Positions 3,690-41,946 of a stretch of DNA of 53,145 nt are shown here, in pieces. Source of the DNA: Planctomycetota bacterium (lineage in GTDB: Bacteria > Pseudomonadota > Gammaproteobacteria > Eutrophobiales > Eutrophobiaceae); NCBI GenBank assembly GCA_047638675.1, contig JBLIML010000005.1, positions 1 to 53,145 on the forward strand, read 5' to 3'. Position 1 is the stretch's first letter; each line of letters begins with the position of its first letter. Position numbers and translations under genes: made by a program. The notes under the pieces are model-generated. The model was given only the letters and a program-made list of their open reading frames with translations, did no database searches and was not told where the DNA came from.

Positions 3690-4523
3690 ATGCAACTTCC
3701 TACAGTACTACCTGCCGACATTTCCAGTACAGTACGCCGGGCCTTAAGTGAAGACATTGGTAAAGGCGACCTTACTGGTATGCTAATTTCTGCCGATGCC
3801 AGCGCCGTGGCAGAAGTGATCTGTCGAGAAAAAGCCGTACTCTGTGGCACGGCCTGGTTTGATGAGGTTTTCAAACAACTGAATAAGCGCGCCAGGGTAA
3901 CGTGGACGGCGAACGATGGTGATGCTATTGCTGCTGAACAGCGAGTCTGCGAGATTGTAGGGCCTACTCGAATTTTGTTAAGTGGTGAACGCACCGCGCT
4001 CAATTTTCTGCAGTTACTCTCCGGTACGGCAACCGTCACCCGTAAATTTGTGGAACAGCTTGGCGAAAGTAAAACACGCCTCTTAGACACACGTAAAACG
4101 ATTCCCGGTTTACGCAGCGCGCAAAAATATGCGGTGGCCTGTGGCGGAGGGAAGAATCATCGTATGGGTCTGTATGATGCCATTCTTATTAAAGAGAACC
4201 ATATTCTCGCTGCTGGCAGTATCAAACTAGCTGTCACACAGGCAAAAGAATCCGGCCACGCGGTTGAAGTGGAAGTCGAGGATCTTGATGAACTGAAGCA
4301 GGCAATCGCCTCAGGTGCGGATAGCGTGCTGCTTGATAATTTTGATCTGCAGGCAATGAGTGAAGCGGTTGAGATCAATGCTGGACGATGCAAACTGGAG
4401 GTATCTGGCGGCGTAGAATTTGACACACTCAAAGCCATCGCCGCAACAGGCGTAGATTACATTTCTGTGGGGGCTTTAACCAAGCATTTGCAGGCAGTAG
4501 ATTTTTCCATGCGTTTTATATAA
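3690..4523 (+). CDS. nadC: Nicotinate-nucleotide diphosphorylase (quinolinate phosphoribosyltransferase)
   Basis: Full-length QPRTase pattern: EDIGKGDLT, GERTALNFLQ, TRKTIPGLR, HRMGLYDAILIKENH, KLEVSGG. Confidence 0.95.
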   Translation: MQLPTVLPADISSTVRRALSEDIGKGDLTGMLISADASAVAEVICREKAVLCGTAWFDEVFKQLNKRARVTWTANDGDAIAAEQRVCEIVGPTRILLSGERTALNFLQLLSGTATVTRKFVEQLGESKTRLLDTRKTIPGLRSAQKYAVACGGGKNHRMGLYDAILIKENHILAAGSIKLAVTQAKESGHAVEVEVEDLDELKQAIASGADSVLLDNFDLQAMSEAVEINAGRCKLEVSGGVEFDTLKAIAATGVDYISVGALTKHLQAVDFSMRFI

Positions 4524-4574
4524 GCGGGAACTATCGTTGGCAAGACCTGAATAACAAAATAATAAATTGGCTCC

Positions 4575-5063
4575 TGCGCGGAATCTGTGGGTGAAAACAC
4601 AACAACCCTCTTGAGAATAAAAAATTAAATCCCCGTCATTCCCGCATGTTTTTAGCGGAGAAGTGGTGCATGGACGCACCGTTTACGAAGCTAACGATGG
4701 AAATCCAGTAAACAACCTCTCCCGCACATTTAAGACTAAAAAAAATAAAATCTCGTCATTCCCGCATGTTTTTAGCGGAGAAGTGGTGCATGGACGCACC
4801 GTTTACGGAGCTAAGGATGCAAATCCAGTAAAACAATTTAGTAAGCTACTTTACATTATGAAGGTCTACAAGACGTCATCCGATATTACCCCTGCTTGAT
4901 TATCGGTAAACCATGGAGGGGACAGATTGTTCACTGGATTTGCATCCTTAGCTCCGTTAACAGCACATCCGTGTGCTACTACTCCGCCAAAAGCTTGCGG
5001 GAATGACGGGGTTTTATTTTTTTTCATTCTCAAGAGGACTGCTGTGTTTTAACCCACAGTTTC
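4575..5063. repeat. Foldback REP/MITE-like composite of three copies of a gtcattcccgc-type element: two direct copies and one inverted copy with long terminal inverted repeats
   Basis: Copies A (core 4631-4716) and B (4751-4836) are direct repeats 120 bp apart, with more than 50 nt identical. Copy C (about 4930-5010) is the reverse complement. The outer ends match as inverted repeats: ctgtgggtgaaaacacaacaaccctcttgagaataaaaaa (4584...) against the reverse complement of 5020-5063. The same family recurs at 11064-11096 and 43379-43712. Confidence 0.8.
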
Positions 5064-5977: not shown

Positions 5978-6607
5978 TTATAACTTACTTTTAACCAATT
6001 CATACACTTCTTCAGTCAATGCCGCGTTACCATCCAATAGACTTTCAAGTTGCTGGCGCCTGTCATTGACAAAGTCTTCGTCCTTGATCGCAGCAATATT
6101 GATGTAGACATTTAAAGCGGCGCTACGCAGTGCGGCGTTAGCGGCCAGCACAGCCACGCCCGCATCGCTGATAACATTGGTGTTTCCCTTCTCAGCCATG
6201 GGTTTACACAGCTTGATAACGTCGCCACAAAGTTTGGCACAGGCAAGCGGTACATCGGTGGCTGACTTCAATGCTGACTGAATTGATGAGAAACGCGCTG
6301 TTTTGTCTTCTTCAGTTTCTTTCGGCAAGCCATAGGCGGCCATCACCTGATCGAAGACCTCGACATCGGCCTTGACCATGTCGGTCAGTTGATGGCGCAG
6401 TTCTTCAGACGCCGCCAGCCATGTCTGCATCTCGGCATCAATCTCCTCGTAGTTCTTTTTACCTATAGTTAAATTGGCAACCATACTCACTAATGCCGCA
6501 GCCATCGCCCCCATGATCGCAGCCGCACTGCCACCGCCAGGGGTCGATGCCTTGCTCGCCAAATCGTCGAGAAAATTCTGCACCGGTTTATCCTTAATCA
6601 TTGTCAA
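5978..6607 (-). CDS. fchA: Methenyl-tetrahydrofolate cyclohydrolase / cyclodeaminase-family protein (FchA-like)
   Basis: FLDDLASKASTPGGGSAAAIMGAMAAALVSMVANLTIGKK and NVISDAGVAVL...LRSAALNVYIN are the hallmark FTCD_C/Fch blocks. It ends 3 nt upstream of the pirin gene. Confidence 0.8.
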   Translation of the reverse strand: MTMIKDKPVQNFLDDLASKASTPGGGSAAAIMGAMAAALVSMVANLTIGKKNYEEIDAEMQTWLAASEELRHQLTDMVKADVEVFDQVMAAYGLPKETEEDKTARFSSIQSALKSATDVPLACAKLCGDVIKLCKPMAEKGNTNVISDAGVAVLAANAALRSAALNVYINIAAIKDEDFVNDRRQQLESLLDGNAALTEEVYELVKSKL

Positions 6608-6876
6608 TTTCTCCTGATTGTTAAATAAAATTTAGAGAAAAACGCCACGAGACCTCTATGCAAGGCGATGGTGTGTCTCGTTAAGTTAAAATTTGAGCAC
6701 GGATAATACTCGCATTGCCCTCACCGAAGCCAAGATTTGTTGTCGCTGGCTTTCGCATCGGTTACCTTTACGGTTCACAAGGGCGTCGACGAAGATGGTG
6801 TAGGTCATGTGATATGGGATGGGCTTGGCAATTCCATGGAAACCCTATAAATAACAATGACCTATTGGAAATATTA

Positions 6877-7734
6877 ATGAAAAAACTCTTGTTTCAGCTA
6901 GATACTGACCAACATCCGTCGGTATTTGACACGGTGGTTGGCTACGATGGCGGCGCCGATCATGTGATCGGTCATGGTAATTGTACTCCCACTAACATTG
7001 CTGCACTTGTCGAGGGGGCGATATTTACCCGCGCGCCAAAAGACAAAAAAAATACGGCCCTGTTTTTGGGCGGCAGCGACATGACCGCAGGCGAAAAATT
7101 ACTGGAGGCAGTCCAACAAAGCTATTTTTCGAATTTTCGTGTCTCCGTTATGCTCGATAGCAACGGCAGCAATACAACCGCTGCCGCTGCCGTCGCAAAA
7201 ATGCTGCTGAGCACGAGTTTAAAAGGTAAAAAGGCGGTTATACTTGCCGGTACGGGACCGGTGGGGCAACGAGCAGCGGTGATGATGGTACGAGAAGGTG
7301 CGTCAGTTTGTATTTCCTCTCGAAAACAATCACGCGCCGCGGAGGCTTGCGCGCACATCAAGACACACTTTGATGTCGATGTCTCAGCTGCTGGTGGTGC
7401 AACTGACGAGGAACGGGCTGAACTTTGTGCTGATGCGCACATTATTTTAGCAACGGGTGCTGCGGGCATTCAGTTACTAACTGAGGAGCATTGGAAAAAT
7501 ATCAGCACTTTGGAAGTTATTGCCGACGCCAACGCGACGCCACCCTTAGGTATTGCTGGCACTGATATGATGGATGAAGGGACAATTAGACATGGAAAGA
7601 TTGTTTGGGGAGCCATTGGCTTTGGCAAATTTAAATTGACACTGCATCGAGCTTGTATTGCCAGATTATTCGAAAGCAATGATCAAGTTTTCGATGCAGA
7701 CGAAATCTTCGCACTTGCTAAAGAGATGGCTTAA
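6877..7734 (+). CDS. mtdA: NADP-dependent methylene-tetrahydromethanopterin/methylene-tetrahydrofolate dehydrogenase (MtdA-like)
   Basis: MKKLLFQLDTDQHPSVFDTVVGYDGGADHV...MLDSNGSNTTAAAAV matches the MtdA N-terminus as I recall it. I place the start at ATG 6877. The 54-codon upstream extension in the ORF track (from 6715) looks non-coding (RRRRWCRSC...). Confidence 0.75.
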   Translation: MKKLLFQLDTDQHPSVFDTVVGYDGGADHVIGHGNCTPTNIAALVEGAIFTRAPKDKKNTALFLGGSDMTAGEKLLEAVQQSYFSNFRVSVMLDSNGSNTTAAAAVAKMLLSTSLKGKKAVILAGTGPVGQRAAVMMVREGASVCISSRKQSRAAEACAHIKTHFDVDVSAAGGATDEERAELCADAHIILATGAAGIQLLTEEHWKNISTLEVIADANATPPLGIAGTDMMDEGTIRHGKIVWGAIGFGKFKLTLHRACIARLFESNDQVFDADEIFALAKEMA

Positions 7735-9717: not shown

Positions 9718-10431
9718 ATGATCAGTTTCACTGAAATATTAACTGCGTCTGATGCCGATCTTGTAAAAATATTTTACAAGATTAATCCGGATCCCAACGA
9801 TGATTTTATAATTCGTATCAATAAAATTGCGACACAACTGGAGTTGAATCATACCCAACTCGTTTGTTCTCTAGGCTTTAATCTGCATATCCGGGATTTA
9901 TCAGATATTTTTTCTACTCTGGGATTTCGTTCTTACAAACTTTTATCCTATCGCTGCAATGAGCTTTTCAGTACAGATACTTATAACCAGCTCCCCATCG
10001 ATAATATTCTCGATATTTATTCTGAGCGACTGGAAGATGATGAAATTCTGGATTCGCTACGGAGGATACTCCCAACGCGCCTCGAAAATATCGAAGCGAG
10101 CCTTGATAAAGAGGAAGACGCAGGACATATTTTCAGTTATCGAATGGAAGTGCAGTCCATCTATACCGCCGCAGTTGTTGGACAAGAATTTGCCTCGATG
10201 CGTCTTGAAAAAAACATTAGCAAATTTCGCCAAATTTCCGGCGAGATTGACGTTTGCATAGATCTCGGTTTTTTCCCACCCAGTAACCTGTTCTTTCAGG
10301 ATGATTTGTCACCAGAGGAAAAAGTACTGCTCATAGAAAACGGACATATCACCCCTGACATGGTCAAAAATAGATTACAGAATAAGGATATCAGTGCGGA
10401 AGAGCGCGATATGCTTGAGGATCATCTCTAG
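9718..10431 (+). CDS. Hypothetical protein, paralogue B of a tandem pair
   Basis: 237-aa ORF starting 18 nt after paralogue A, with the same blocks as above. A visibly AT-rich gene. Confidence 0.6.
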   Translation: MISFTEILTASDADLVKIFYKINPDPNDDFIIRINKIATQLELNHTQLVCSLGFNLHIRDLSDIFSTLGFRSYKLLSYRCNELFSTDTYNQLPIDNILDIYSERLEDDEILDSLRRILPTRLENIEASLDKEEDAGHIFSYRMEVQSIYTAAVVGQEFASMRLEKNISKFRQISGEIDVCIDLGFFPPSNLFFQDDLSPEEKVLLIENGHITPDMVKNRLQNKDISAEERDMLEDHL

Positions 10432-10447
10432 TTAGTAAGCACGAGGG

Positions 10448-10485
10448 CGTTCCATGACCCTTCGATTTCGCTCAGGGTGACAATA
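10448..10485 (+). repeat. Left copy of a roughly 38-bp imperfect direct repeat (REP-like ttcgctcagggtgaca element)
   Basis: gcgttccatgacccttcgatttcgctcagggtgacaata is repeated at 10787-10826 as ccgttccgagacccttcgacttcgctcaagggtgacaata. Confidence 0.7.
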
Positions 10486-10544
10486 TTCTTGTCATCTCGA
10501 CTGAAACGGACGCCTACAGCGACGTAGGTGGTAGAAACGCGTCG

Positions 10545-10729
10545 GGACACTCACATGGAAGTGAGTGCTAGAGTCGAGTCTGGACACTCACATGGAAGTG
10601 AGTGCTAGAGTCGAGTCTGGACACTCACATGGAAGTGAGTGGTAGAGTCGAGTCTGGACACTCACATGGAAGTGAGTGGTAGAGTCGAGTCTGGACACTC
10701 ACATGGAAGTGAGTGGTAGAGTCGAGTCT
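10545..10729 (+). repeat. Five head-to-tail copies of a 37-bp unit, each forming a 7-bp hairpin with a GGA loop. Candidate GGA-hairpin ncRNA; see findings.
   Basis: The unit is ggacactcacatggaagtgagtg(c/g)tagagtcgagtct, starting at 10545, 10582, 10619, 10656 and 10693. Units 1-2 differ from units 3-5 by a single C/G. The stem is cactcac/gtgagtg and the loop is atggaa. Confidence 0.95.
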
Positions 10730-10786
10730 GGAACAGAGACCGAGCAGAGACCGAACGGCGTTCGAGAGATCTCACAAACCGCGGCT

Positions 10787-10849
10787 CCGTTCCGAGACCC
10801 TTCGACTTCGCTCAAGGGTGACAATACCTATTCGCTCAGGGTGACAAGA
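10787..10849 (+). repeat. Right copy of the direct repeat, plus an extra partial copy (ttcgctcagggtgacaaga)
   Basis: See the left copy. 10827-10849 repeats the ttcgctcagggtgaca core again. Confidence 0.7.
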
Positions 10850-10896
10850 CCCATTCCTCGGGATGACGATACCCAGCGTTGAGAGTAACAATAGCG

Positions 10897-10925
10897 CTCG
10901 CCCATGCGGCGAGATAATTTATTCG
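10897..10925 (+). terminator. Weak candidate intrinsic terminator downstream of the hairpin array
   Basis: ctcgcc (10897-10902), loc catgc loop, ggcgag (10908-10913), followed by ataatttatt. The stem is only 6 bp and the U-tract is interrupted. Confidence 0.3.
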
Positions 10926-11063
10926 GGAAAATCTCCTGTCATTTTCTGCATTATCTCCATTTCCTTAATCTCTTCAACAAGTTAATTTCTGTTTTAACAG
11001 ACAGAAATAAAACAGGCCGGGTACTTAACCTGAACTCGGAATAAGAGAATTCAGTAACTTAGT

Positions 11064-11096
11064 CGTCATTCCCGCTAAAAACATGCGGGAATGACG
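11064..11096. repeat. Minimal REP hairpin of the gtcattcccgc family
   Basis: cgtcattcccgc taaaaacat gcgggaatgacg: a perfect 12-bp stem with a 9-nt loop. Confidence 0.85.
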
Positions 11097-11202
11097 CTAT
11101 TTCTTTGAATTTGTGAAACTAGTTCTTTAACCCGGGTTCAAGTTACTTAAGTGTTGGGAGAAAAAATGTCCTCCCTTGATCATCCACGCCAGGAAATACG
11201 GA

Positions 11203-13707
11203 ATGCTTTACGCTAGAGTCTTAAAAAATCTGAGATCCACTCCACCATCCCGAGTATGGCGGTCTTTTGTGTTTTCCGTGTTAATTGCAAACTCAACCTC
11301 ATTGATGGCGCAGGCAAGTGAAGAAGTTGTCGTCATTGGCGTAACACCCAACCAGGGGGTGGGTCTGGAAAAAGAAAAAATCCCCTATAACATTCAGTCT
11401 GCCACCAGCGAGGACCTCGAACAGGCTCAAAGTCTTGATCTCACCGATTTTCTAAATCGTAATGTCGGCAGTATCAATATCAACGGTGCCGCCAGCAATC
11501 CTTTGCAGCCGGACGTCCAGTTTCGTGGTTACTCAGCCTCGCCATTATTAGGGCTGGCACAGGGCATTGCCGTTTATCAAAATGGAGTGCGTATCAACGA
11601 ACCTCTGGGTGACTCAGTGAACTGGGATCTACTGCCAGAGTCCGCCATTTATAATATTGATCTTATCGGTGGTGCCAACCCGCTATATGGTTTAAATACG
11701 CTCGGTGGCGCTTTGTCTGTGACAATGAAAAATGGTGTTAATAGCGAGGGACACCATCTAAAAGCCTACGGCGGCTCATTCGGAAGGTTGGTACTCTCTG
11801 CGGAAAGTGGTGGTCACAATGACAACTTTAGCTACTACGGGAATGTACATTATTTTGATGAAGATGGCTGGCGTGAACAATCACCCTCTGAGGCAATAAA
11901 TTTTTATGGCAGTGTTGGCTGGCAAGATCAACTGTCCGAACTTAATCTTAATTTCCAGCATGGGAATACGGAGCTCTTTGGCAATGGCCCCCTTCCAGTG
12001 GAATTACTCGCGATTGACCGACGGACCGTTTTTACAGCGCCGGATATCACGGAAAACAAGCTGTACATGTTCAGCCTGGACGGTGCCCATTCTTTTTCTG
12101 ATGATCTGCAGGTCAACGGTAATGTTTTTTATCGTCGCAACAAGACCCACTCTTTTAATGGCGATGGTTCAGAATTTTCTATTTGTAATCTCGGCGCTAC
12201 TGACACCCTGCTTGAAGGGCTTGAAGAAGAGAGTCTTGAGGCTATTGGCATGGATACTGATGATGTTTGCCAAAACCAGTTTACAGACGCAAACGCACTT
12301 GAAAACTTCTTGAATACCGCCGCAACGGCGACAGGAAATAGCGAGCAGTTTAATATCCAGGACCTCAGCGATGAATTATCAGGTAGCGGCGTCTTGTCTG
12401 ATCAAGCCATTAATAATATTAGTGATCGTAATCAGGCCAGCTACGGCACAGATTTACAAATGACATTTATGCAGGATCTGTTTGACCGCAACAATCTATT
12501 CATCGCCGGCCTGGCGTATTTCAAAGGCAAATCAAAATTCCATTCCATACTTGAACTCGCCGGACTCGATCCTCTTAGCCGAAGCACACTTGGCCTGAGT
12601 ACAGGTATTATCGTCGACGAGGCGGCTACCGACATTGAAACGTTTTCCGAAACTATGAGTTTTTACCTCTCTGATACCATCGATATAAACCGACAACTCA
12701 GTCTTACCTTTGCTGGCCGGATAAATAACACGCGAATTAAACTTGCAGACCAGTCCGGCGATCGAGCGGAATTAAATGGTGAACATGATTTTTTTCGCGT
12801 CAATCCTGCTGTTGGGCTTACCTACAAGGCCAATAAAACGATGAGTCTTTATGCCAGTTACAATGAATCATCAAGGGCTCCGACGCCAATCGAACTCAGC
12901 TGTAACGATAGAATATTCAGCGTCGCCATCGCCGCCGCCATCGCCGCTGGCGATGATCCGGATGATGTCAATTTCGAATGTCGTCTACCAAATGCCTTTC
13001 TTGCCGATCCGCCTCTGGAACAGGTTGTCACCCGAAGTGTTGAAGTGGGTGTTCGCGGACAAATTAGAGATACCGACTATCATCTGGGATTTTTCCGCTC
13101 CATCAATAAAAATGACATCTTGTTCCAGACCACAGGGCGTTCCACCGGTCTGTTCGCCAATGTGGATGAAACTCAACGATTGGGAATTGAGACCAGGGCT
13201 AGCGGACATTGGGGCAAACTCGACTGGTTTACGGCCTATAGCTATCTTGAGGCTACCTTTGAGGATACCTTTAAAGTGCTTAGCCCAAACCATCCCCTGG
13301 CAGACGACGATGGTGAAATTGACGTCAAGCCTGGCGATCGTCTTCCCGGTCTACCGAGACACAATTTGAAATTAGGCGCCGACTACTATTTCAATGACAA
13401 CATAAGTATTGGCTTCGATGTGTCGTACCGCTCCGATCAAATTTTACGTGGCGATGAATCCAATCAGGTAGACGAACTGACTGGCTACGCGCTTATGAAC
13501 TTGCGTGGTCGATATCGCATCAATCCACACCTTGAATTTTTTGCCCGTATAAACAATGTTTTCGATAAGGATTACGAAAACTTTGGCCTGCTCGGCGAAG
13601 AGCCCAGCGAAGTGGATGTGCCGCTATTTGAAAACTTCGAAAATCCCAGGTTTGTCGGCCCAGGCGCGCCACGAGCAGGATTTGTGGGCATCAAGCTTAG
13701 TTTATAA
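11203..13707 (+). CDS. TonB-dependent outer-membrane receptor
   Basis: Signal peptide ending SLMAQA, a plug-domain start EEVVVIGV, a long beta-barrel, and a C-terminal ...GFVGIKLSL. I prefer ATG 11203 (aggaa RBS 9 nt upstream) over the TTG at 11176 in the ORF track. Confidence 0.9.
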   Translation: MLYARVLKNLRSTPPSRVWRSFVFSVLIANSTSLMAQASEEVVVIGVTPNQGVGLEKEKIPYNIQSATSEDLEQAQSLDLTDFLNRNVGSININGAASNPLQPDVQFRGYSASPLLGLAQGIAVYQNGVRINEPLGDSVNWDLLPESAIYNIDLIGGANPLYGLNTLGGALSVTMKNGVNSEGHHLKAYGGSFGRLVLSAESGGHNDNFSYYGNVHYFDEDGWREQSPSEAINFYGSVGWQDQLSELNLNFQHGNTELFGNGPLPVELLAIDRRTVFTAPDITENKLYMFSLDGAHSFSDDLQVNGNVFYRRNKTHSFNGDGSEFSICNLGATDTLLEGLEEESLEAIGMDTDDVCQNQFTDANALENFLNTAATATGNSEQFNIQDLSDELSGSGVLSDQAINNISDRNQASYGTDLQMTFMQDLFDRNNLFIAGLAYFKGKSKFHSILELAGLDPLSRSTLGLSTGIIVDEAATDIETFSETMSFYLSDTIDINRQLSLTFAGRINNTRIKLADQSGDRAELNGEHDFFRVNPAVGLTYKANKTMSLYASYNESSRAPTPIELSCNDRIFSVAIAAAIAAGDDPDDVNFECRLPNAFLADPPLEQVVTRSVEVGVRGQIRDTDYHLGFFRSINKNDILFQTTGRSTGLFANVDETQRLGIETRASGHWGKLDWFTAYSYLEATFEDTFKVLSPNHPLADDDGEIDVKPGDRLPGLPRHNLKLGADYYFNDNISIGFDVSYRSDQILRGDESNQVDELTGYALMNLRGRYRINPHLEFFARINNVFDKDYENFGLLGEEPSEVDVPLFENFENPRFVGPGAPRAGFVGIKLSL

Positions 13708-18792: not shown

Positions 18793-19203
18793 ATGCTAAT
18801 GAAAACCACACGTGGATTTACCTTAATTGAACTGATGATCGTTGTTGCGATTATCGCCATAATGGCCGCAGTTGGCTATCCCTCCTATCTAACATCGGTA
18901 ACCAAAGCACGGCGCTCAGATGCACAACAACTTATGCTGGATGTGGTTAATCGAGAAGAACAGGTGTTGATTGACCAACGCACTTATGGCTTTAATTTTA
19001 CTACTTTGGGCATTGTTAAGGAAGATTGGACATGTGTCGCCGCCAACTGCACCAATGACTTTTATACCGTCACCCTGGTTGGAGCTATTACTGATGTCCC
19101 GCCAGTCTATACTGTGACGGCAACTCCCTCTGGCACACAGACCGCTGATGGTGTCCTGACTATCAACAATACGGGTGCCAAAACACCCGCTGACAAGTGG
19201 TAA
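18793..19203 (+). CDS. pilE: Type IV pilin-like protein PilE
   Basis: Class III signal (MLMKTTRG|FTLIELMIVVAIIAIMAAVGYPSY) followed by KARRSDAQQ, typical of PilE. Confidence 0.85.
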   Translation: MLMKTTRGFTLIELMIVVAIIAIMAAVGYPSYLTSVTKARRSDAQQLMLDVVNREEQVLIDQRTYGFNFTTLGIVKEDWTCVAANCTNDFYTVTLVGAITDVPPVYTVTATPSGTQTADGVLTINNTGAKTPADKW

Positions 19204-19207
19204 TTAG

Positions 19208-19771
19208 ATGGCGCGACAGTTACACATTTTATCGGTATTTCCTTTGCCAGGAAAACTAGCCTCCCTTAGACGGAGCAGTGGCTTTACCATAATTGAATTA
19301 CTGATCACGGTTTCAATAGCAGGTACGCTAATGGCGATAGGACTCCCTTCCTTGCAAAATTTTTTATTGACGCAGAAAGTCAGAACGGCGACGTCCGACA
19401 TACATGTTGGTCTGTTACTTGCCCGCAGCGAAGCGATTAAGCGTAATACTGATGTTGAACTCGATAGAAACACAACAAGCTGGACTGGTGGTTGGAACGT
19501 AGAGATTAAGTCAAGCGGTTCCATTATCAGGACACAAGACGCGTTTAACGGCTTAACCATTACTTGTAATACCAATGCTGATGCTGCTGCCGAAGCCTGT
19601 CCCGCAACCGTTGAACTCTCCCGGACTGGACGCCCAACGACCTTTACTGAGTTTCGCGTTTTTGTAAATGGCAATACAAGTATCGCTGCGCGCTGTCTTT
19701 CATTGCGCTTAAGTGGCGTGCCACGCATTACAATGGATACCGATCAAGACAGCAGCGACGGGTGTGACTAA
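19208..19771 (+). CDS. GspH/FimT/FimU-family minor pilin
   Basis: SGFTIIELLITVSIAGTLMAIGLPSLQNFL... prepilin N-terminus followed by a GspH-like body. The leader is unusually long if ATG 19208 is used, so the start is uncertain. Confidence 0.75.
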   Translation: MARQLHILSVFPLPGKLASLRRSSGFTIIELLITVSIAGTLMAIGLPSLQNFLLTQKVRTATSDIHVGLLLARSEAIKRNTDVELDRNTTSWTGGWNVEIKSSGSIIRTQDAFNGLTITCNTNADAAAEACPATVELSRTGRPTTFTEFRVFVNGNTSIAARCLSLRLSGVPRITMDTDQDSSDGCD

Positions 19772-20388
19772 TGAAAAGAACCTTAGTAATACGAACCCAT
19801 TCCGGGTTCTCAATGATAGAAATTTTAATAGCCCTGTTTGTGACACTGATTGGTCTTCTCGGGATCGGGGCCTTACAGGCAAAAGCTCAACAAGCGGAAT
19901 TTGAGTCTTATCAACGGGCTCAGGCCCTGGTGATTCTGTCGGATATTGTAGACCGTGTTAACATCAATCGATCTACCATCGCCTGTTTTGCCATCACCAC
20001 TAACACCACCACGGGCTTGCCATTTCTGGGTGCCACAGGCACAGGTCATCTTGGAACACCTACCTGTGCGGCCAGCACCACGACTTATAACACTCAGGCG
20101 GTTGCCACATTAAATGCCATTGATTCCTTGTTGCTGGGTAGCGCCGAACGATTGTCCGGTGCCAATGTCGGCGCGATGATCGGCGCCAGGGCCTGCCTCT
20201 CTTACGATGCTAGTACCGAATTAAGCGCTGTTGCTGGAACGGGTTATTTCACGGTGGTCATAAGCTGGCAAGCATTGTCTGATTTACCCGTACCCCTTAA
20301 TAAGAACTGTGCTAACACGCTATACGGCGATTTGACAAAACGCCGTGCGATTTCAACCCGTTTTCGCGTGGCCAATTTATTCGGGTAA
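19771..20388 (+). CDS. pilV: Type IV pilus minor pilin PilV
   Basis: HSGFSMIEILIALFVTLIGLLGIGALQAKA...YQRAQA. The start overlaps the previous stop (TAATG at 19769-19773). Confidence 0.85.
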   Translation: MKRTLVIRTHSGFSMIEILIALFVTLIGLLGIGALQAKAQQAEFESYQRAQALVILSDIVDRVNINRSTIACFAITTNTTTGLPFLGATGTGHLGTPTCAASTTTYNTQAVATLNAIDSLLLGSAERLSGANVGAMIGARACLSYDASTELSAVAGTGYFTVVISWQALSDLPVPLNKNCANTLYGDLTKRRAISTRFRVANLFG

Positions 20389-20394
20389 ATAGCT

Positions 20395-21564
20395 ATGATT
20401 ATGGATCTGTATAAAAGTAACCAACAGAGCGGCGTAACACTTGTCGAGCTGTTAGTCGCAATCTCCATTGGTGCCTTCATGATGCTCGGCCTGACAACCA
20501 CCTTTCAAAACTCAAGCAGAGCCCAGCGTGCCCTGGTCAAGTCGAATGAGCTAATAGAAAACGGTCGTTATGCCATCAGCATTTTGTATGAGGATCTGCG
20601 ACATGCTGGTTATTATGGGCATTTTTATAACCTTGGTAACCCGCTGGCGAACTTGCCCGATCCATGTGAGATAGGTAACCTTGCTTCACTAAGAGCTAGC
20701 ATGGCAATCCCCGTGCAAAGCTACACTTCGGCGGATTTGGCCACCGCAGCAGTCATCGCTAGTACCCCTAATACCTGTGCTGGGACATGGTTGACTGCGG
20801 CTAATCTGGCAGTGGGTTCTGACATTCTGGTGATACGCCGTGCCGATACAGCTGTTTTTACCGGTACGCCTAATCCGGGCGAAGTCTATCTACAGTCAAA
20901 TGTCCTTAATGCGAATTTATTGGAGGGTAATATCAGTGCGACGGTTCCTCCCACTTCGCCTGTGCCGACAGTGGGTGCCCCTGGACTTGCCGCTGATAAT
21001 ACGACAACCAATTTACTCAAGTATCCCAGTAAAACCGGCGATGCGACGATAGCAGAGACACGTAGTTTTCATGTTCACGTGTATTTTGTCGCGCCCTGTA
21101 GCTTTGGTAGCGGTGCCAATGGCATATGTGCCGGCGGTGATGATGCTATCCCCACTCTCAAACGTCTGGAGTTGGGTTCAGATGGTTCCGACCCAACAAT
21201 GAATATCGTACCTCTTGTTGAAGGCATCGAATTCATGAAGCTGGAATACGGCATTGATTCGACACCCACTACGACGAATCCCGTCACCGGCTTGCAGGGC
21301 GACGGCATTCCAGACTTTTATGTGCCCAGCGCGAGCACGACCCAACTCCCCATGGCGGTCTCATTCAGAATTCATTTGCTAGTGAGGGCCACAGAGGAGG
21401 CAAGCGGTCATGCCGACACCAAACAATACGTGTTACCGCCAGTGCCGGCGGCACCCACGGTTCCGATCCTGACCACAGCAACCGGCGATAAATTCAAACG
21501 TCATATTTTTACAACCGAGGTACGCCCCATGAACTTAAGCGGGCGAAGAGAGATACCCGAATGA
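20395..21564 (+). CDS. pilW: Type IV pilus minor pilin / assembly protein PilW
   Basis: QSGVTLVELLVAISIGAFMMLGL...ENGRYAISILYEDLRHAGYYG is the PilW signature N-terminus. Confidence 0.8.
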   Translation: MIMDLYKSNQQSGVTLVELLVAISIGAFMMLGLTTTFQNSSRAQRALVKSNELIENGRYAISILYEDLRHAGYYGHFYNLGNPLANLPDPCEIGNLASLRASMAIPVQSYTSADLATAAVIASTPNTCAGTWLTAANLAVGSDILVIRRADTAVFTGTPNPGEVYLQSNVLNANLLEGNISATVPPTSPVPTVGAPGLAADNTTTNLLKYPSKTGDATIAETRSFHVHVYFVAPCSFGSGANGICAGGDDAIPTLKRLELGSDGSDPTMNIVPLVEGIEFMKLEYGIDSTPTTTNPVTGLQGDGIPDFYVPSASTTQLPMAVSFRIHLLVRATEEASGHADTKQYVLPPVPAAPTVPILTTATGDKFKRHIFTTEVRPMNLSGRREIPE

Positions 21565-21995
21565 ATTTAGCCAAAAAACAGAGCGGTACAGTATTGTTCA
21601 TTGCACTGATATTCCTGGTCATCATGACCTTGTACGCTGTTTCTTCTATAAATATGAGCACCACCAACCTGAAAATTGTCGGTAATATGCAAGCCATCAA
21701 AGAGATGGATGCAGATGCCCAGGATGCCATTGAGCAAACACTCAGTGATATGAATCAATTTAGCCTGACCCCCGCTGCCAGTACTGTAAGTGGTGCAATA
21801 GGGTCTGTTGACGTTGCCACCCCAGAATGTATCCAGAGTCGAACCGCTACCGGCTACAGCGCCGTGGCTGGCGACATCATCCCTGAAGACAACACCTGGG
21901 AATTGACGGCAACCGTCAGTGACAGCGTCACAGGTGCAGCTTCAACAATTCATCAAGGCGTGGAAATACGCATGTTGGCAGGTAACTGCCCTTAA
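21561..21995 (+). CDS. pilX: Type IV pilus minor pilin PilX
   Basis: KKQSGTVLFIALIFLVIMTLYAVSSINMSTTNLKIVGNMQ (PilX_N type). ATGA overlap with pilW at 21561-21564. Confidence 0.75.
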   Translation: MNLAKKQSGTVLFIALIFLVIMTLYAVSSINMSTTNLKIVGNMQAIKEMDADAQDAIEQTLSDMNQFSLTPAASTVSGAIGSVDVATPECIQSRTATGYSAVAGDIIPEDNTWELTATVSDSVTGAASTIHQGVEIRMLAGNCP

Positions 21996-22022
21996 TTTCT
22001 ATTTCTAATCAGGAGTACTCCT

Positions 22023-25000
22023 ATGCGCTATTTTTCAATAATTCAGAAAAATACCCGATTACAGGCATTTCTTACGACCTTGCTGTTAACAGTGTGCGCG
22101 GGCATACCACAGACCTATGCTGATTTTGACCCGGTTAACGATGATACGGACATTTTTCTCTCTAATCCCAATGTGCCCGCTCAGCGCCCGAATATTTTAA
22201 TCTTCCTGGATAACACAGCTAACTGGAACACGGCCTTTGATAATGAAAAAAGCGCTTTGGTAGGTGTTGTTAACAACTTGTCAGATCAATTTAATGTCGG
22301 TCTGTTGATGTTCCCGGAAACTGGCGGTGATAACGATAGCATCGATGGAGCCTATATTCGCTTTGCCGTGCGGCAAATGACGAACGCTAATAAAACCGTT
22401 CTCTCAAACCTGGTAAACGGCCTCAATAAAATAGCCGACAAAGGCAATAACGCCAGTCCGGCACAGGGCATGATTGAAATCCACCGCTATCTGTCCGGCG
22501 GGACTTCGCGTGCCGGTCACGGCAAGGTTAAAACGGATTATGCCAGTAATACTGATGAGCCTGGTGGGCACCCGGCTACCAATGCGGGTTTAGGAGGACA
22601 TGCCCTGCCGGCATCTCCAACCGCCAGTTCTACCTATACCTCGCCCATTGCTGATTCATGTCAAAGTAATTTTATGATTTATATCAGCAATGGTCCGGCC
22701 GGTGAAAATGCTTCTGGATTGTCCGTAGCGGAAGCGGATCTGGCAGCGCAAGGCTACGATACAAGCAGTGTCATTGGCCTGACGCCCAGCGGTCAACAGG
22801 GTAACTGGATGGATGAATGGGCCAAATACATGGCCAATGCGGACGTCAGTCCGCTCGGTGGTAGTCAGAACCTAACCTCGTATGTGGTCGAGGTAGATCC
22901 GGGACTGACAGGTCAGGGCCCGAACATGACTGCACTGATGGAGAGCGTTGCCTTAAATGGTAATGGTGAATATTTTGCCGTATCAAGTGGCAATGCAGGT
23001 ACCGCTATCGTCAATGCCCTGAACCAGATATTTACAGAGATACAGGCAGTAAATAGTGTATTCGCCTCGAGTACCCTGCCTGTCAGTGTCAACGTCCGTG
23101 GCACCAACCTGAATCAGGTATACATCGGTGTGTTCCGACCTGATGAAAACAAAAGTCCACGTTGGTTTGGTAATTTAAAAATGTACCAACTGGGCTTTAA
23201 TACCTCAACCAGTACATTGTTCCTCTCCGATGCGGCAGGCGGCGAGGCGGAAAACCCGGAGACCGGCTTTATCAATTCCAGCGCTCCCAGCTTCTGGACC
23301 ACAGCGAGTACCTACTGGTCTTACCGTACCGCAGATGAAAACGGCGCTGGTGGTTCCTCTGATTTACCTGATGGTGACCTGGTGGAAAAGGGTGGCGCCG
23401 CACAAAATCTGCGACTGGATTTTGCAGCGACGCAAGCGGGTCGCGATTTGTACACCTGCACGGGCGCCTGCACAGATGGCTCGAGCTTATCCTCTACCCC
23501 GTTTGCTACTACCAATACCGATATTACTAATGTCGCGCTTGGATTGGGCAGCACAGCGGTATCTCCTTTAACAGGCTTCGTAACCCAAACCGGCCTTGCC
23601 ATCACCGACACCTTCACCGTTACTTCTGCCAGTACTTCTACAGGAGGTCTCACCACTACCCTGTCGACGGATGCTGTGGGTCAGACGATTACAGCGCTGA
23701 GTTCGAGTAACAGTACGGTTATTACTGCAGCTAATGACGGCTCCATTTCGCAGAGCTTTGATGGTTTAAACCGCGCCACTGGCAACCCCAAAAATCCTGT
23801 AGAAGCCACTATTAATGGTCATGGTTATAGCACGGGCACCGTGGTTACCATCGCTGGTGTCAGTGCCTCTGAATACAACGGTACCTTTAGCATTATCAAA
23901 GTCGATAATAATGTTTTTAAATACGATACAGGTAACAGTAATCCTGCTAATAGCCCGATCTTTGCCAGCGCCACAGCAACGACCACGTCATCCATTCTTA
24001 CCGTTACTGCGCCCGGCCATGGGCTGACGGATCCAGGCACCGATGGGAACATTACACTTACCGGAATCGCGCCGACCGATTATAACGCAACATACAGTAG
24101 CTGGAGTGTGATTGGTGATAATATCTCCATCACCCTGGCATCGCCCCTGGCGTCGATTACGTCCTTTGCTAGCGCAAGAATCATCGGTGGCGCCTCCGTA
24201 GTTGCGATGGCAACTGTACCAAGCCATGGTTATAGCACCAATAATTCTGTCATTATCAATGGTGCCACACAAACTGGCTATAATGGAACGCGTACGATTA
24301 CGGTTATCGACGCTAATAGATTTAGATTCCCCGTTGCCTCTTTAATTGCCGCGGATAACAGCGGTACTGCGAAAGCATTTGTCGGGAATGCCACTGTTAC
24401 GGCCACCGCAACTGCCCATGGCTTCACTAATGGACAAGTTGTCACCATAGCCGGCACTGTCGATACCGGTTACGGTGGGGCCTTCGCTATTTCCAATGCG
24501 ACCGCGAACACTTTTGAATACACTACCCTGGCGCGACCTGCGAACACTGGCAGTCCCGTCACAGTGGCGGCGGGTGTTACAACCACCGCGAGCGCGGTTA
24601 TCCCCGGACATAAATTTGTCGTAGGCGACAATGTGGACTTCAGCGGAGCAACACCCACTGACTATAACCAGACAACTGCCAACATCGACACTGTTGTCGG
24701 CGATACCGTCACCTACTCGGTGGCTCCCGCGACACCAACAGCGGCCACAAGTCCATTTATTGTTAAGCGAACACTCCCAACCGCTTATGCGACCCTCACC
24801 GGACACGGTTATTTATCGTTAGGTCAGATCACAATCCAGGGTGCTGACCAAGGTGGCTATAATAAGAGTGATGCAATTATCACGGTGCTTGATGCCGATA
24901 ACTTTAGATACCTGATCCCGGCTAATGTAAATGCTGATGCCACCGGCACTATTACGGCTTCCATAAAAACGACGACGGCAACGGCGAGAGCAGTGGCACA

Positions 25001-27029
25001 TGGTTTTGCAACAAGCGACGTTGTCTCTATCGCAGGTGCATCGCCAACGGCCTTTAATGGCGCTTCTTTAACTATCACAAAAATAGACGATGATACTTTT
25101 ACCTATACCCTTCCTTCTGCGCAAGGTGATGCCTCCGGCAGTATCCTCGCGGCAAGTGGTACTGGCTCTGCCAGCGCCCGTAGCAACTTGATTGAATGGG
25201 TCAGGGGAGCTGATAACTTTGAAGATGAAAACGCGGATACCACAGTCAGCAGTCCCTACGATATACGCACTTCATCGCATGGTGACGTATTGCACTCACG
25301 TCCGGCGGTGGTCAACTACAATCGACATGGTAACGACGATGACGTCTATATCTTCTACGGTGCTAATGACGGTATCTTTCGTGGTGTAAAGGGAGGCTTT
25401 AATCAAAGCCTTGCCCTCCAACCCTTACCAGGTCATGAGGACTGGGGCTTTATCCCAGAAGAGTTCTTCGGAAGCCTGCAACGCCTGCGTAACAACGAGC
25501 CGACTATCAGTAGCAGCAATAAGAAGGCATATTTTGCCGATGGCACGATTGGTGTGCTGGTAGAAGACAATAGTGGCCCGGGTGGAGCCACTACGCCTGA
25601 CGAAAAACTGGATACAAGCGTTGATAACAACGCCAATCCTGACAGGGTGTTCTTATATGTCTCAATGCGCCGCGGTGGACGCTTCATCTATGCCCTTGAT
25701 GTGAGTGACCCCAGTGATCCCAAGCTATTGTGGAAAAAAAGCAATGCCGATACCGGTTTTGGTGAGTTAGGTCAAACCTGGTCGGCGCCAAGGGTGTTAT
25801 CGCTGGCCATTGACACAGACGGTGCTGGTCTGCTTGATGATGATGACGTGGAGGATGTTGTCATGTTCGGCGCAGGTTATGACCCGACGGTGGAAGATAT
25901 AGACCCAACGACTATCACCGCGGTGAGTTCATCCACAGTCACTGTCGGTGCTTCCACTTATAGCCGCACCATGGGCCGCGGGATTTTTGTTGTCGATGCA
26001 GTCACCGGTACGCCAATCTGGCAGGCAGGTCCAGCGCTTCCCGCCGGCGGCCTTCCAGCACATCCCTATGTCGCAGTAGTTGGGATGGATTATGCCATTC
26101 CATCTGATATTGCTGTGATAACTGACGCCAATGGTTCTATCGATAATCGTGCCTATGTCGGCGATACCGGTGGAAACATATGGCGCGTTGATATGGCTGA
26201 TACCAATGTCAGCAACTGGACCGTGACCAAGTTGGCGTCCGTTGCTGATGTAGATGGTACGCCCGCCCTTGCCGAAGGCATGCGTAAGTTCCTCTTCCCA
26301 CCGGATGTGGTTTATTCCGCTGATGGTTACGACGCCGTACTCATTGGCAGTGGTGATCGTGAACATCCCTTTGATTCTGAGGTCGAAAACCGCTTTTATA
26401 TGTTTAAGGACACGGGCACCTCTCCCGAGGCAGATATCGATACGACAGAAGATAATGATGCCGGTACGACGACTGCAGCCCCCGCCAACCAGCCCACTAT
26501 TGTTGAATCAGATCTGTTTGATGCAACCTTTAATTGTTTGCAAGACGCCAGCGCCTGTGCCACTGACCCAGGTGTTAACGATACAAACGGAGATCTTGTC
26601 GTTGACCAGGCCGATGCGGAAGCAATCATAGCGGCTGGTAGAGGATGGTATATCACCCTCGGTAACGGAGAAAAGGTTGTAGGAAATGCTGTCACGCTAA
26701 ATGCCGTCACCTTTTTTAACACCAACCAGCCCGAATCGACAGCCGATGTTACCGATTGCTCTAGTAATCTGGGTATCGCTCGTCAATATAAAGTGGTGTT
26801 CGATAATGCGACCGCCATTGCGGATGAGAATATCGATGGTTCTACCGACGCTGCGGATCGAAGTAATGTGCACGCTGGTGGTGGCTATCTACCCTCACCG
26901 GTGCCTGTAGTGGTGAAAATAGACGGCAAGGTTCACGTCGGTATTATTTCCGGTGTGGCCGTTGATGAGCCGCCGGGCACACTCCTCGATGCCAGACTCA
27001 GGAAATTCTGGTACAAGGAAATAGAGTAA
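22023..27029 (+). CDS. pilY1: PilY1/PilC-family type IV pilus tip adhesin / biogenesis factor, unusually long at 1668 aa
   Basis: Signal peptide, then an N-terminal vWA-like region (ILIFLDNTANWN). C-terminal PilY1 propeller blocks: GDVLHSRPAVVNY, FYGANDGIFRGV, GGRFIYALDVSDPSDPKLLWK, GQTWSAPRV, VMFGAGYD, AYVGDTGGNIWRVDM, GWYITLGNGEKVVGNAV. RBS aggag lies 8 nt upstream. Confidence 0.9.
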   Translation: MRYFSIIQKNTRLQAFLTTLLLTVCAGIPQTYADFDPVNDDTDIFLSNPNVPAQRPNILIFLDNTANWNTAFDNEKSALVGVVNNLSDQFNVGLLMFPETGGDNDSIDGAYIRFAVRQMTNANKTVLSNLVNGLNKIADKGNNASPAQGMIEIHRYLSGGTSRAGHGKVKTDYASNTDEPGGHPATNAGLGGHALPASPTASSTYTSPIADSCQSNFMIYISNGPAGENASGLSVAEADLAAQGYDTSSVIGLTPSGQQGNWMDEWAKYMANADVSPLGGSQNLTSYVVEVDPGLTGQGPNMTALMESVALNGNGEYFAVSSGNAGTAIVNALNQIFTEIQAVNSVFASSTLPVSVNVRGTNLNQVYIGVFRPDENKSPRWFGNLKMYQLGFNTSTSTLFLSDAAGGEAENPETGFINSSAPSFWTTASTYWSYRTADENGAGGSSDLPDGDLVEKGGAAQNLRLDFAATQAGRDLYTCTGACTDGSSLSSTPFATTNTDITNVALGLGSTAVSPLTGFVTQTGLAITDTFTVTSASTSTGGLTTTLSTDAVGQTITALSSSNSTVITAANDGSISQSFDGLNRATGNPKNPVEATINGHGYSTGTVVTIAGVSASEYNGTFSIIKVDNNVFKYDTGNSNPANSPIFASATATTTSSILTVTAPGHGLTDPGTDGNITLTGIAPTDYNATYSSWSVIGDNISITLASPLASITSFASARIIGGASVVAMATVPSHGYSTNNSVIINGATQTGYNGTRTITVIDANRFRFPVASLIAADNSGTAKAFVGNATVTATATAHGFTNGQVVTIAGTVDTGYGGAFAISNATANTFEYTTLARPANTGSPVTVAAGVTTTASAVIPGHKFVVGDNVDFSGATPTDYNQTTANIDTVVGDTVTYSVAPATPTAATSPFIVKRTLPTAYATLTGHGYLSLGQITIQGADQGGYNKSDAIITVLDADNFRYLIPANVNADATGTITASIKTTTATARAVAHGFATSDVVSIAGASPTAFNGASLTITKIDDDTFTYTLPSAQGDASGSILAASGTGSASARSNLIEWVRGADNFEDENADTTVSSPYDIRTSSHGDVLHSRPAVVNYNRHGNDDDVYIFYGANDGIFRGVKGGFNQSLALQPLPGHEDWGFIPEEFFGSLQRLRNNEPTISSSNKKAYFADGTIGVLVEDNSGPGGATTPDEKLDTSVDNNANPDRVFLYVSMRRGGRFIYALDVSDPSDPKLLWKKSNADTGFGELGQTWSAPRVLSLAIDTDGAGLLDDDDVEDVVMFGAGYDPTVEDIDPTTITAVSSSTVTVGASTYSRTMGRGIFVVDAVTGTPIWQAGPALPAGGLPAHPYVAVVGMDYAIPSDIAVITDANGSIDNRAYVGDTGGNIWRVDMADTNVSNWTVTKLASVADVDGTPALAEGMRKFLFPPDVVYSADGYDAVLIGSGDREHPFDSEVENRFYMFKDTGTSPEADIDTTEDNDAGTTTAAPANQPTIVESDLFDATFNCLQDASACATDPGVNDTNGDLVVDQADAEAIIAAGRGWYITLGNGEKVVGNAVTLNAVTFFNTNQPESTADVTDCSSNLGIARQYKVVFDNATAIADENIDGSTDAADRSNVHAGGGYLPSPVPVVVKIDGKVHVGIISGVAVDEPPGTLLDARLRKFWYKEIE
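23805..25142 (+). repeat. Seven tandem ~65-aa protein repeats inside pilY1 (aa 595-1040)
   Basis: The HG motif recurs at residues 600, 666, 735, 799, 863, 928 and 993. Consensus: A....HG(Y/F)..G..V.I.GA.....YNG....I..V....F.Y. Examples: ATINGHGYSTGTVVTIAGVSASEYNGTFSIIKVDNNVFKY and ARAVAHGFATSDVVSIAGASPTAFNGASLTITKIDDDTFTY. Confidence 0.85.
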
Positions 27030-41820: not shown

Positions 41821-41879
41821 GACGGCTGATTTACTGTCTATTTATTAGACGTCTTAGACATCGCTAATATTGTATTTTT

Positions 41880-41915
41880 GCCACGGACGCCTACATGGAT
41901 GTAGGCGTCTGTGGC
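41880..41915. repeat. Palindromic REP-like hairpin between convergent genes
   Basis: gccacggacgcctac-atggat-gtaggcgtctgtggc. It shares ggacgcctaca...gtagg with 10509-10530. No U-tract follows it on either strand. Confidence 0.7.
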
Positions 41916-41946
41916 AATAAAAGTTCTAAGCAAGTCAATATAATAG

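Follow-up and report, generated by a model that had tools for sequence, protein, structure and literature searches.

The tandem repeat array located at positions 10545–10729 (plus strand) of contig JBLIML010000005.1 was characterized together with its relatives in other genomes; the window is the whole stretch of DNA that was analysed, 53,145 nucleotides of this contig. The array lies in a 771-bp intergenic region and consists of five 37-bp units, each presenting GGA in a hairpin loop, and a previous sequence-only reading had proposed it as a sponge RNA of the CsrB/RsmY/RsmZ type. The analysis indicated that the array is very probably an amplified module of a mobile hairpin element, designated here the A/B element, and is most likely transcribed passively. 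Nothing marks it as a dedicated CsrB/RsmY-type sponge RNA gene, and it should not be annotated as such.

A single strong array was detected in the window with Tandem Repeats Finder, as a period-37 repeat at 10528–10732 (5.5 copies, 96% matches, score 368). The units start at positions 10545, 10582, 10619, 10656 and 10693, and they differ at a single site, position 24 (C, C, G, G, G in units 1 to 5). The 23-nt core GGACACTCACATGGAAGTGAGTG occurred five times, all in the array; it was not found elsewhere in the window at up to three mismatches, nor in any of 100 shuffles. Each unit is formed by an A module (GGA-CACUCAC-AUGGAA-GUGAGUG-(C/G)UAGA) and the 5' arm of a B module (GUCGAGUCU), and folds into a 7-bp stem, CACUCAC/GUGAGUG, with the loop AUGGAA (-11.1 kcal/mol). 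The array is preceded by unit 0 (10508–10544, plus strand), an older diverged A module with the stem CGCCUAC/GUAGGUG and the loop AGCGAC (37.1 bits with model R1), in which the stem was kept through compensatory changes and one G-U pair and the GGA was lost from the loop. It is closed by a single complete B module (10722–10747, plus strand; UCGAGUCU-GGAACAG-AGACCGA-GCAG), a hairpin with GGA in its loop in the fold of 10693–10760. Ten GGA motifs were counted inside 10545–10729 and an eleventh at 10730, with no TCC. The description given in the sequence-only reading, that is, five hairpins with one nucleotide difference, this stem and loop, eleven GGA motifs on the plus strand and none on the minus strand, and a degenerate zeroth unit with a non-GGA loop, was thus confirmed by repeat finding, unit-by-unit reading and folding.

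In the equilibrium fold of the whole array, an inter-unit "zipper" (-103.7 kcal/mol) was preferred to five local hairpins (-53 kcal/mol), because the linkers (AGAGUCGAGUCU) are nearly self-complementary. The loop GGAs were unpaired under either fold, with a probability of being unpaired of about 0.8–1.0. A second GGA had also been placed in each linker as single-stranded; this motif does exist, but it is partly paired in the ensemble (probability of the first G being unpaired 0.04–0.11 in units 2–5). A coding function of the array was rejected on inspection of the unit sequence and its frames, because 37 is not divisible by 3 and TGA and TAG (TGA on the reverse strand) shut every frame within three units. 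A CRISPR array was also rejected; the units abut directly at period 37, with no unique spacers.

The canonical A/B element has about 48–55 nt and is composed of module A followed by module B; longer loci chain several A and B modules on one strand. Module A has the structure (G)GAC-stem-A(N)GGA(Y)-stem-GGAGGUAG, with the 3' flank G(GA)GGUA(G/C), and module B the structure stem-(C/U)(A/U)GGAAC or GCAGGAGCA-stem-(C)CGAG. A scan with the stems fixed and the loop free recovered 10 metagenome contigs in at least six flank contexts, all of them amid diverged A and B hairpins, and the module maps drawn for 11 loci were mosaics with a variable number of tandem internal modules. The last unit of the array and its tail match a single-copy A+B element of these contigs along the A stem and the linker and through most of B, with the loop AUGGAA instead of AUGGAU; the array can therefore be described as an A module plus the B 5' arm amplified in place. 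When a covariance model built from the A hairpin was used, a solitary family member, UUGCCAC-GGACGCCUAC-AUGGAU-GUAGGCGUC-U-GUGGCAA, emerged at 41878–41917 (plus strand), in a convergent intergenic region of the window; its hairpin has a folding energy of -33.7 kcal/mol (z = -10.4).

Direct evidence of insertion came from the gene pglX. The allele carried by plasmid pW18-2-a of Moellerella wisconsensis, a BREX-1 methyltransferase gene, holds a copy (locus L057, 2501–2548) that constitutes a clean 48-nt in-frame insertion (16 codons, DDCMDAGGRATQDAKA) with respect to the 77%-identical pglX of an Escherichia coli plasmid, and the flanks align without gaps. The inserted allele is also present in a Salmonella plasmid and in 2 of 5426 E. 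coli genomes (the chromosomes of ZF31 and ZF34). In addition, copies have unrelated flanks within and between genomes, and presence or absence at homologous sites was seen both in pglX and in the spacer of the window. The A/B element can thus be regarded as mobile, because it is dispersed across contigs, a metagenome-assembled genome, chromids and prophage tail operons, and because of the clean pglX insertion; this conclusion rests on presence/absence and dispersal, not on mechanism.

Copies were recovered from several kinds of replicons. In a gammaproteobacterial metagenome-assembled genome of GTDB, a four-hairpin copy directly follows a stop codon. Two overlapping contigs, which cover about 16 kb of a single genome, carry four loci. 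Both orientations are represented, and one of these loci lies in frame in an open reading frame (ORF) with an HNH_2 domain: the copy (L038, 2382–2430, plus strand, within the ORF 1879–2847) comprises A and a degenerate B, and occupies the linker of a 322-aa endonuclease, before the HNH domain (residues 217–266). With the A consensus and the stem triplets free, 14 IMG/VR contigs with copies were found, with a G+C content of 0.49–0.67, and a B hairpin followed every match although the pattern did not demand one. The neighbours were scanned in five of these contigs, and all five have P2-like structural (tail or capsid) genes beside the copy. In three, the copy is within the tail-gene cluster (baseplate J/gpI; tape measure/gpU; upstream of tape measure and gpU end), and in a fourth it is inside a large capsid-domain ORF. 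One IMG/VR host is phiCTX-like, i.e., Pseudomonas-like. No match to the element was obtained among the INPHARED phage records. In PLSDB, BLAST revealed one to five copies in each of six Pseudoalteromonas chromids, besides the copy in pglX of the Moellerella and Salmonella plasmids. Every identifiable host of the element is a gammaproteobacterium.

Five independent best-scoring PLSDB sites are all 3' of a co-oriented gene, at 46–130 nt where the gene is annotated or readable. With respect to co-oriented neighbours, 12 loci were informative, eight of them sense and four antisense, which is not significant (p = 0.39); in any case, an excess of sense copies would be expected both from an RNA function and from insertion of single-stranded DNA targeted to the lagging strand.

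Two further observations concern the family. At locus L060, three A+B copies (4295–4345, minus strand; 4517–4570, minus strand; 4890–4945, plus strand) lie in a 1.3-kb non-coding stretch from rsgA to a dam-type methylase gene, and two of them are arranged as an inverted repeat (about 85 nt) that encloses about 260 bp, possibly a larger composite element. At L033 (980–1050), L035 (2660–2735) and L036 (1780–1850), a conserved module, AATCACTCCGACyTGmCGTGCAAGGAT...(covarying hairpin)...TAATGTCGCAAGCA, was detected; it is directly upstream of GGA-hairpin arrays at two unrelated loci, is preceded by TATAAT in L033 and L035, and had no Rfam match. The A/B family looks undescribed, because no Rfam family was matched at threshold and a full-text search of the literature for four 13–14-nt consensus strings, and for CsrA plus REP, returned nothing relevant.

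The copy number of the array was compared among related contigs. Two JGI metagenome contigs (L001 and L002) encode an identical 237-aa protein upstream, and their intergenic region is exactly as in the window except for the number of units, which is four (C, C, G, G) and not five. The sequence-only reading had itself warned that the array looked like a recent variable-number tandem repeat, and near-identical head-to-tail units that differ in number agree with this. The closest other TonB-dependent receptors encoded downstream are 74–78% identical. Four syntenic loci keep the gene order, with a spacer of 182–209 bp versus 771 bp in the window, and a fifth (L030) is without the two upstream genes; since two of the four are known from gene coordinates only, the DNA alignment comprised three relatives. 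In this alignment only 10915–11000 is shared, and none of the three relatives has a repeat in its spacer. The exact 20-mer of the unit core had no match in 185,579 GTDB species representatives. No comparable array was found upstream of the GTDB relatives of the receptor (up to 66% identity), a comparison that is uninformative because these relatives are too distant. On the basis of these comparisons, the array is lineage-specific, not a conserved small RNA (sRNA) locus.

The following origin can be proposed. One A+B copy, with an older degenerate A module (unit 0) in front, would have resided in a lineage-specific, repeat-rich block of about 450 bp. Replication slippage or unequal exchange would then have duplicated the 37-nt segment from GGAC to GUCU, using the GTCnGGA microhomology of both ends, and the duplicated segment would since have expanded to four or five copies. 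The unit junctions read ACGCGTCG/GGAC, TCGAGTCT/GGAC and TCGAGTCT/GGAA (...GTCG/GGAC, ...GTCT/GGAC and ...GTCT/GGAA, the slash marking the junction), so the GTCnGGA microhomology is suited to slippage. The nearly self-complementary linkers, from which the zipper fold results, also belong to this slippage substrate.

With regard to transcription, the array follows a 237-aa gene (9718–10431, plus strand; no Pfam or NCBIfam match), which according to synteny is the last gene of a conserved Sel1/SPOR-242aa-237aa operon. No terminator-like site was found between its stop codon and the array. The nearest one is a hairpin, CUCGCC-CAUGC-GGCGAG followed by AUAAUUUAUU (10897–10913, plus strand), 170 nt past the array, which matches the position of a short hairpin in the relatives L029 and L031, just before the conserved receptor promoter block, and is likely the terminator of the upstream operon. 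The repeat block (about 10445–10895) seems to have been inserted between the stop codon of the operon and this terminator, because only 10915–11000 is shared with the relatives and the hairpin precedes it in L029 and L031. This would place the array, in sense, in the 3' untranslated region (UTR) of the operon, where it is most likely transcribed passively; as far as the sequence can tell, neither a promoter nor a regulon signature belongs to the array itself.

The folded form of the element was found to be conserved. With a pattern in which the stems were free, 19 of 19 distinct matches had complementary stem triplets, representing nine different stems; this set is the unbiased test, because the alignment of A had been picked for at least four pairs. 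In that alignment, double changes were present at five of seven pairs, compared with zero to two in slid controls. The B stems covary too (GCAAC/GUUGC, GUAAU/AUUAC, GUAAC/GUUAC and ACAAU/AUUGU), and the G-U pairs are valid on the GGA strand only. The loops are nearly always A(U/G/C/A)GGA(U/C), with the exceptions AUGAAU, AUGGUU and that of unit 0. Because loops and linkers are fixed while the stems covary, the folded single strand is under selection, and the constancy of the A(N)GGA(Y) loop indicates that it is the GGA-presenting hairpin that is selected and not a chance loop. The sequence-only reading would have been discarded if the array were one of many REP-like copies with random loops; it is indeed one of many copies, but the loops are not random. 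The selecting agent could be CsrA/RsmA acting on RNA or, equally, an enzyme that mobilises the element as single-stranded DNA.

Several points weigh against the interpretation of the array as a passively transcribed, amplified mobile module. L001 and L002 are metagenome assemblies, in which collapse of a 185-bp repeat in short reads could give four units versus five. No mobilising gene was found, either among the larger window ORFs scanned against Pfam or beside L060, where Pfam identified only sspB, rsgA and the Dam methylase. The element has no terminal inverted repeats (its ends are ACGAC.../...CCGAG) and no clear target-site duplication, with only a 3-nt GAC ambiguity at the pglX junction. 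Finally, ANGGAN loops are kept across hosts of 40–67% G+C and one relative, L037, shows a sub-threshold match to RsmY, which together suggest an RNA-level function that a purely selfish repeat does not explain. As for the type of element, a miniature inverted-repeat transposable element was rejected, considering that the ends are not inverted repeats and that pglX shows no clear target-site duplication.

The main alternative is that the transcribed array acts as a functional CsrA/RsmA-binding 3' UTR or mRNA-borne sponge. The five optimal GGA hairpins and the B hairpin would bind several CsrA dimers, titrating CsrA or putting the upstream operon or the receptor under Csr control, and this would be compatible with an origin as an amplified mobile repeat. 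CsrA and RsmA are near-universal in gammaproteobacteria, the only group in which hosts of the element were identified. The consensus obtained for CsrA by systematic evolution of ligands by exponential enrichment (SELEX) is RUACARGGAUGU, in which ACA and GGA are 100% conserved and GGA is in a hairpin loop (PMC4347634). The unit core UCACAUGGAAGU retains the invariant ACA and GGA; the copies of the window read ACAUGGAAGU, and related CACUCAC copies read ACAUGGAUGU, one mismatch from the core. The agreement of the loop with the CsrA/RsmE consensus (A/U)CANGGANG(U/A), with GGA in the loop, had been pointed out before and holds on the sequence. The loop GGAs unpaired in the ensemble, the A(N)GGA(Y) loop maintained in the whole family while the stems covary, the G-U pairs valid only on the GGA strand and the sense location between a stop codon and a terminator-like hairpin also favour binding of CsrA. 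In addition, L037 aligned hairpin-for-hairpin with the RsmY model at 28.8 bits, below the gathering score of 57, although the terminator hairpin of the model was down to four aligned pairs, with 16 of its positions absent; the scans comprised the window together with 10 loci from metagenomes and 6 from viruses, and L037 was the only sequence with any Csr-clan Rfam match.

On the other hand, nothing credible was found for csrA in the 53-kb window by tblastn. The family is antisense to both neighbours at about 4 of the 12 informative loci and also occurs within ORFs, unit 0 is without GGA, and the conservation of the loop could equally reflect recognition by a mobilisation enzyme. CsrA RNA immunoprecipitation sequencing (RIP-seq) data exist for Pseudoalteromonas fuliginea BSW20308 (PMC11882849), whose chromid (chr2) has four copies of the element. 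The one copy that was located (L058, 20001–20050, equivalent to chr2 724210–724259) is flanked by genes for a uracil-DNA glycosylase and a bile acid:Na+ symporter, and neither this copy, one of the four on chr2, nor its neighbours D172_RS20420 and D172_RS20425 are included in the published sRNA and target lists. A sponge or regulatory 3' UTR is thus a possible but not a probable function of the array.

An independent sRNA gene of the CsrB/RsmY/RsmZ type, equipped with a terminator and a GacA/UvrY-dependent promoter, is very unlikely, and was largely refuted on sequence grounds. It would account for eleven GGA motifs confined to one strand, for hairpins that fit the CsrA/RsmE consensus and for the sub-threshold RsmY similarity of L037; of four features that define Csr sRNAs, only the GGA motifs were found, with no covariance-model match, no promoter with GacA box and no conservation of the locus. 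No sigma-70-like plus-strand promoter was detected between 10432 and 10545. The GacA/UvrY box TGTAAG-N6-CTTACA, already reported as missing, was absent at up to three mismatches from the 445 nt upstream of the array, with window-wide matches at chance level, and it was equally absent upstream of nine other family loci at that threshold. A consensus scan of three other family loci yielded no plus-strand sigma-70-like promoter or terminator. The Rfam scan for known CsrB, RsmY and RsmZ that had been suggested gave no Csr-clan match in the window at the gathering score, nor at E ≤ 10 over 10300–11300. The only downstream terminator candidate, the hairpin at 10897–10913 with its 6-bp stem, is weak, as had been suspected. 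Moreover, the locus is absent in the syntenic relatives, the element is a dispersed repeat, and the repeats of known Csr sRNAs are diverged, in contrast to these near-identical units in variable copy number.

An array of DNA operators, with CACTCAC-N6-GTGAGTG every 37 bp binding a dimeric regulator of the receptor, or acting as a phase-variable promoter-spacing switch, is also very unlikely, and slightly more so: perfect inverted repeats are located upstream of a receptor gene and their number varies, but about 185 bp, including a terminator-like hairpin, separate the end of the array from the conserved promoter block downstream, relatives regulate the same receptor without any array, the family is not associated with receptor genes, and the covarying stems of the family argue against sequence-specific recognition of double-stranded DNA. 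An antitoxin RNA of a type III toxin-antitoxin system (ToxI-like, with tandem 34–45-nt repeats, processed by and inhibiting a ToxN-type endoribonuclease) is extremely unlikely: ToxI has 5.5 repeats of 36 nt, a geometry that the 5.5 × 37 nt of the array resembles, but the array is followed by a gene for a TonB-dependent receptor and not by a ToxN/AbiQ-like ORF, relatives without the array also have the upstream genes, and the unit belongs to a dispersed family.

Among known systems, the closest analogue in behaviour would be the BOX element of Streptococcus pneumoniae, followed by the repetitive extragenic palindromic (REP) sequences and their bacterial interspersed mosaic elements (BIME); for in-frame insertion the nearest would be the Rickettsia palindromic elements (RPE), and for RNA architecture RsmY, CsrB and TwoAYGGAY. 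BOX has the organization boxA-(boxB)n-boxC, with modules of 45–59 nt and loops without a conserved motif resembling a protein-binding site. Both BOX and the A/B element are dispersed, mostly intergenic mosaics with one internal hairpin module in tandem in variable number, are highly structured as RNA and lack a transposase of their own. BOX belongs to another phylum and has no sequence similarity, whereas the A/B element keeps its ANGGAN loops while the stems vary, with a minimal size of about 48 nt.

REP families are species-specific, have conserved stems, are associated with RAYT (Y1 HUH) transposases and carry a GTAG-type tetranucleotide by the hairpin. Like REP and BIME, the A/B element forms short clustered hairpin mosaics, commonly 3' of genes, with strand-specific G-T/G-U pairs and a GTAG-type motif, in this case GGUAG or GGUAC after every A module and before the next hairpin. 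It differs in that loops and linkers are the same across its hosts while the stems vary, in its direct instead of alternating orientation, and in the in-frame insertions into ORFs; no RAYT gene was seen among the larger ORFs of the window compared with Pfam. RPE are 100–150 bp long, are restricted to Rickettsia and have no GGA-loop motif; they share with the A/B element, as seen in pglX and HNH_2, the property of short hairpin mobile repeats that insert in frame without destroying the gene. The RsmY/CsrB family (Rfam clan CL00106, including TwoAYGGAY) also presents several hairpin-loop GGAs on one strand, and many A loops are AYGGAY; unlike it, the A/B element gave only matches below the gathering score, and none for the array of the window, has no GacA box or promoter of its own, and is present many times in a genome, in either orientation, with copies within ORFs and prophages as well. 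ToxI arrays are likewise formed by about 5.5 tandem units of about 36–37 nt in non-coding DNA, but here there is no adjacent toxin gene and the unit derives from a dispersed family.

The intergenic region around the array, from the end of the 237-aa gene (10431) to the start of the receptor gene (11203), accumulates repeats. The repeat block begins 14 nt 3' of the stop codon of the 237-aa gene. Its left edge is marked by copy 1 of a direct repeat, D2 (CGTTCCATGACCCTTCGATTTCGCTCAGGGTGACAA; 10448–10483, plus strand), and its right edge by copy 2 (10788–10824) and a partial third copy (10831–10847), which together span 10788–10847 on the plus strand. The D2 repeats (CGTTCC..GACCCTTCGAyTTCGCTCA(A)GGGTGACAA) flank the array 340 bp apart and are hairpin-forming; no further copies were found in the window or in the fetched loci. 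The block shared with the relatives (10915–11000, plus strand; TTCGGGAAAATCTCCTGTCATTTTCTGCATTATCTCCATTTCC...TCAACAAGTTAA) opens with a small palindrome, C(A/G)GGAAAATCTCCTG, and is presumably the promoter/operator of the TonB-dependent receptor gene (834 aa; 11203–13707, plus strand). A perfect 12-bp palindrome, CGTCATTCCCGC-N9-GCGGGAATGACG, is located at 11064–11096, about 107 nt before the called receptor start, with a T-rich tail after it. This palindrome is a member of another dispersed repeat family, with no relation to the array, CGTCATTCCCGC-N9-GCGG(A/G)GAAGTG, often after an A-rich run, which has at least seven copies in the 53 kb (4634, 4754, 5007 on the minus strand, 11064–11096, 43436, 43538, and 43705 on the minus strand).

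The rest of the window is an ordinary gammaproteobacterial chromosome, with tetrahydromethanopterin (H4MPT)-type C1 genes, type IV minor pilins, ileS-lspA-ispH and ribF. The regions 5978–7734 and 18793–27029 hold H4MPT-type C1-transfer genes (FTCD_C cyclohydrolase-like; Mpt_N dehydrogenase) and a type IV pilus minor-pilin operon. This operon includes a ComP_DUS-like pilin and a 1668-aa ORF, whose syntenic counterparts hit PilY1 (T4P_PilY1) and VWA_2. No transposase was matched with Pfam among the larger window ORFs scanned.

A more speculative proposal, which at present must be regarded as doubtful, concerns the whole family. The A+B twin hairpin (about 48 nt, with two GGA loops about 27 nt apart that would suit one CsrA dimer) might be a mobile CsrA/RsmA-binding cassette that spreads via gammaproteobacterial chromosomes, chromids, plasmids and P2-like prophages, and that wires new transcripts into the Csr/Rsm regulon or gives phages and selfish DNA a means to tap or titrate the regulator of their host; in that case the array of five units would be an amplified, high-capacity CsrA trap on the 3' UTR of an mRNA.

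As an object the array is of an ordinary kind, since it is one module of an intergenic hairpin repeat that has expanded locally. The family to which it belongs combines traits that are rarely joined: a very small size of about 48 nt, demonstrated insertion (among other sites, in frame into a BREX methyltransferase gene and between tail genes of phages), occurrence in a wide range of hosts, and covarying stems together with invariant loops in agreement with the CsrA SELEX consensus. With CsrA as the ligand, the element would be a mobile vehicle by which post-transcriptional regulatory sites are distributed; with a mobilisation enzyme as the ligand, it would point to an unrecognised mechanism for moving hairpin DNA.

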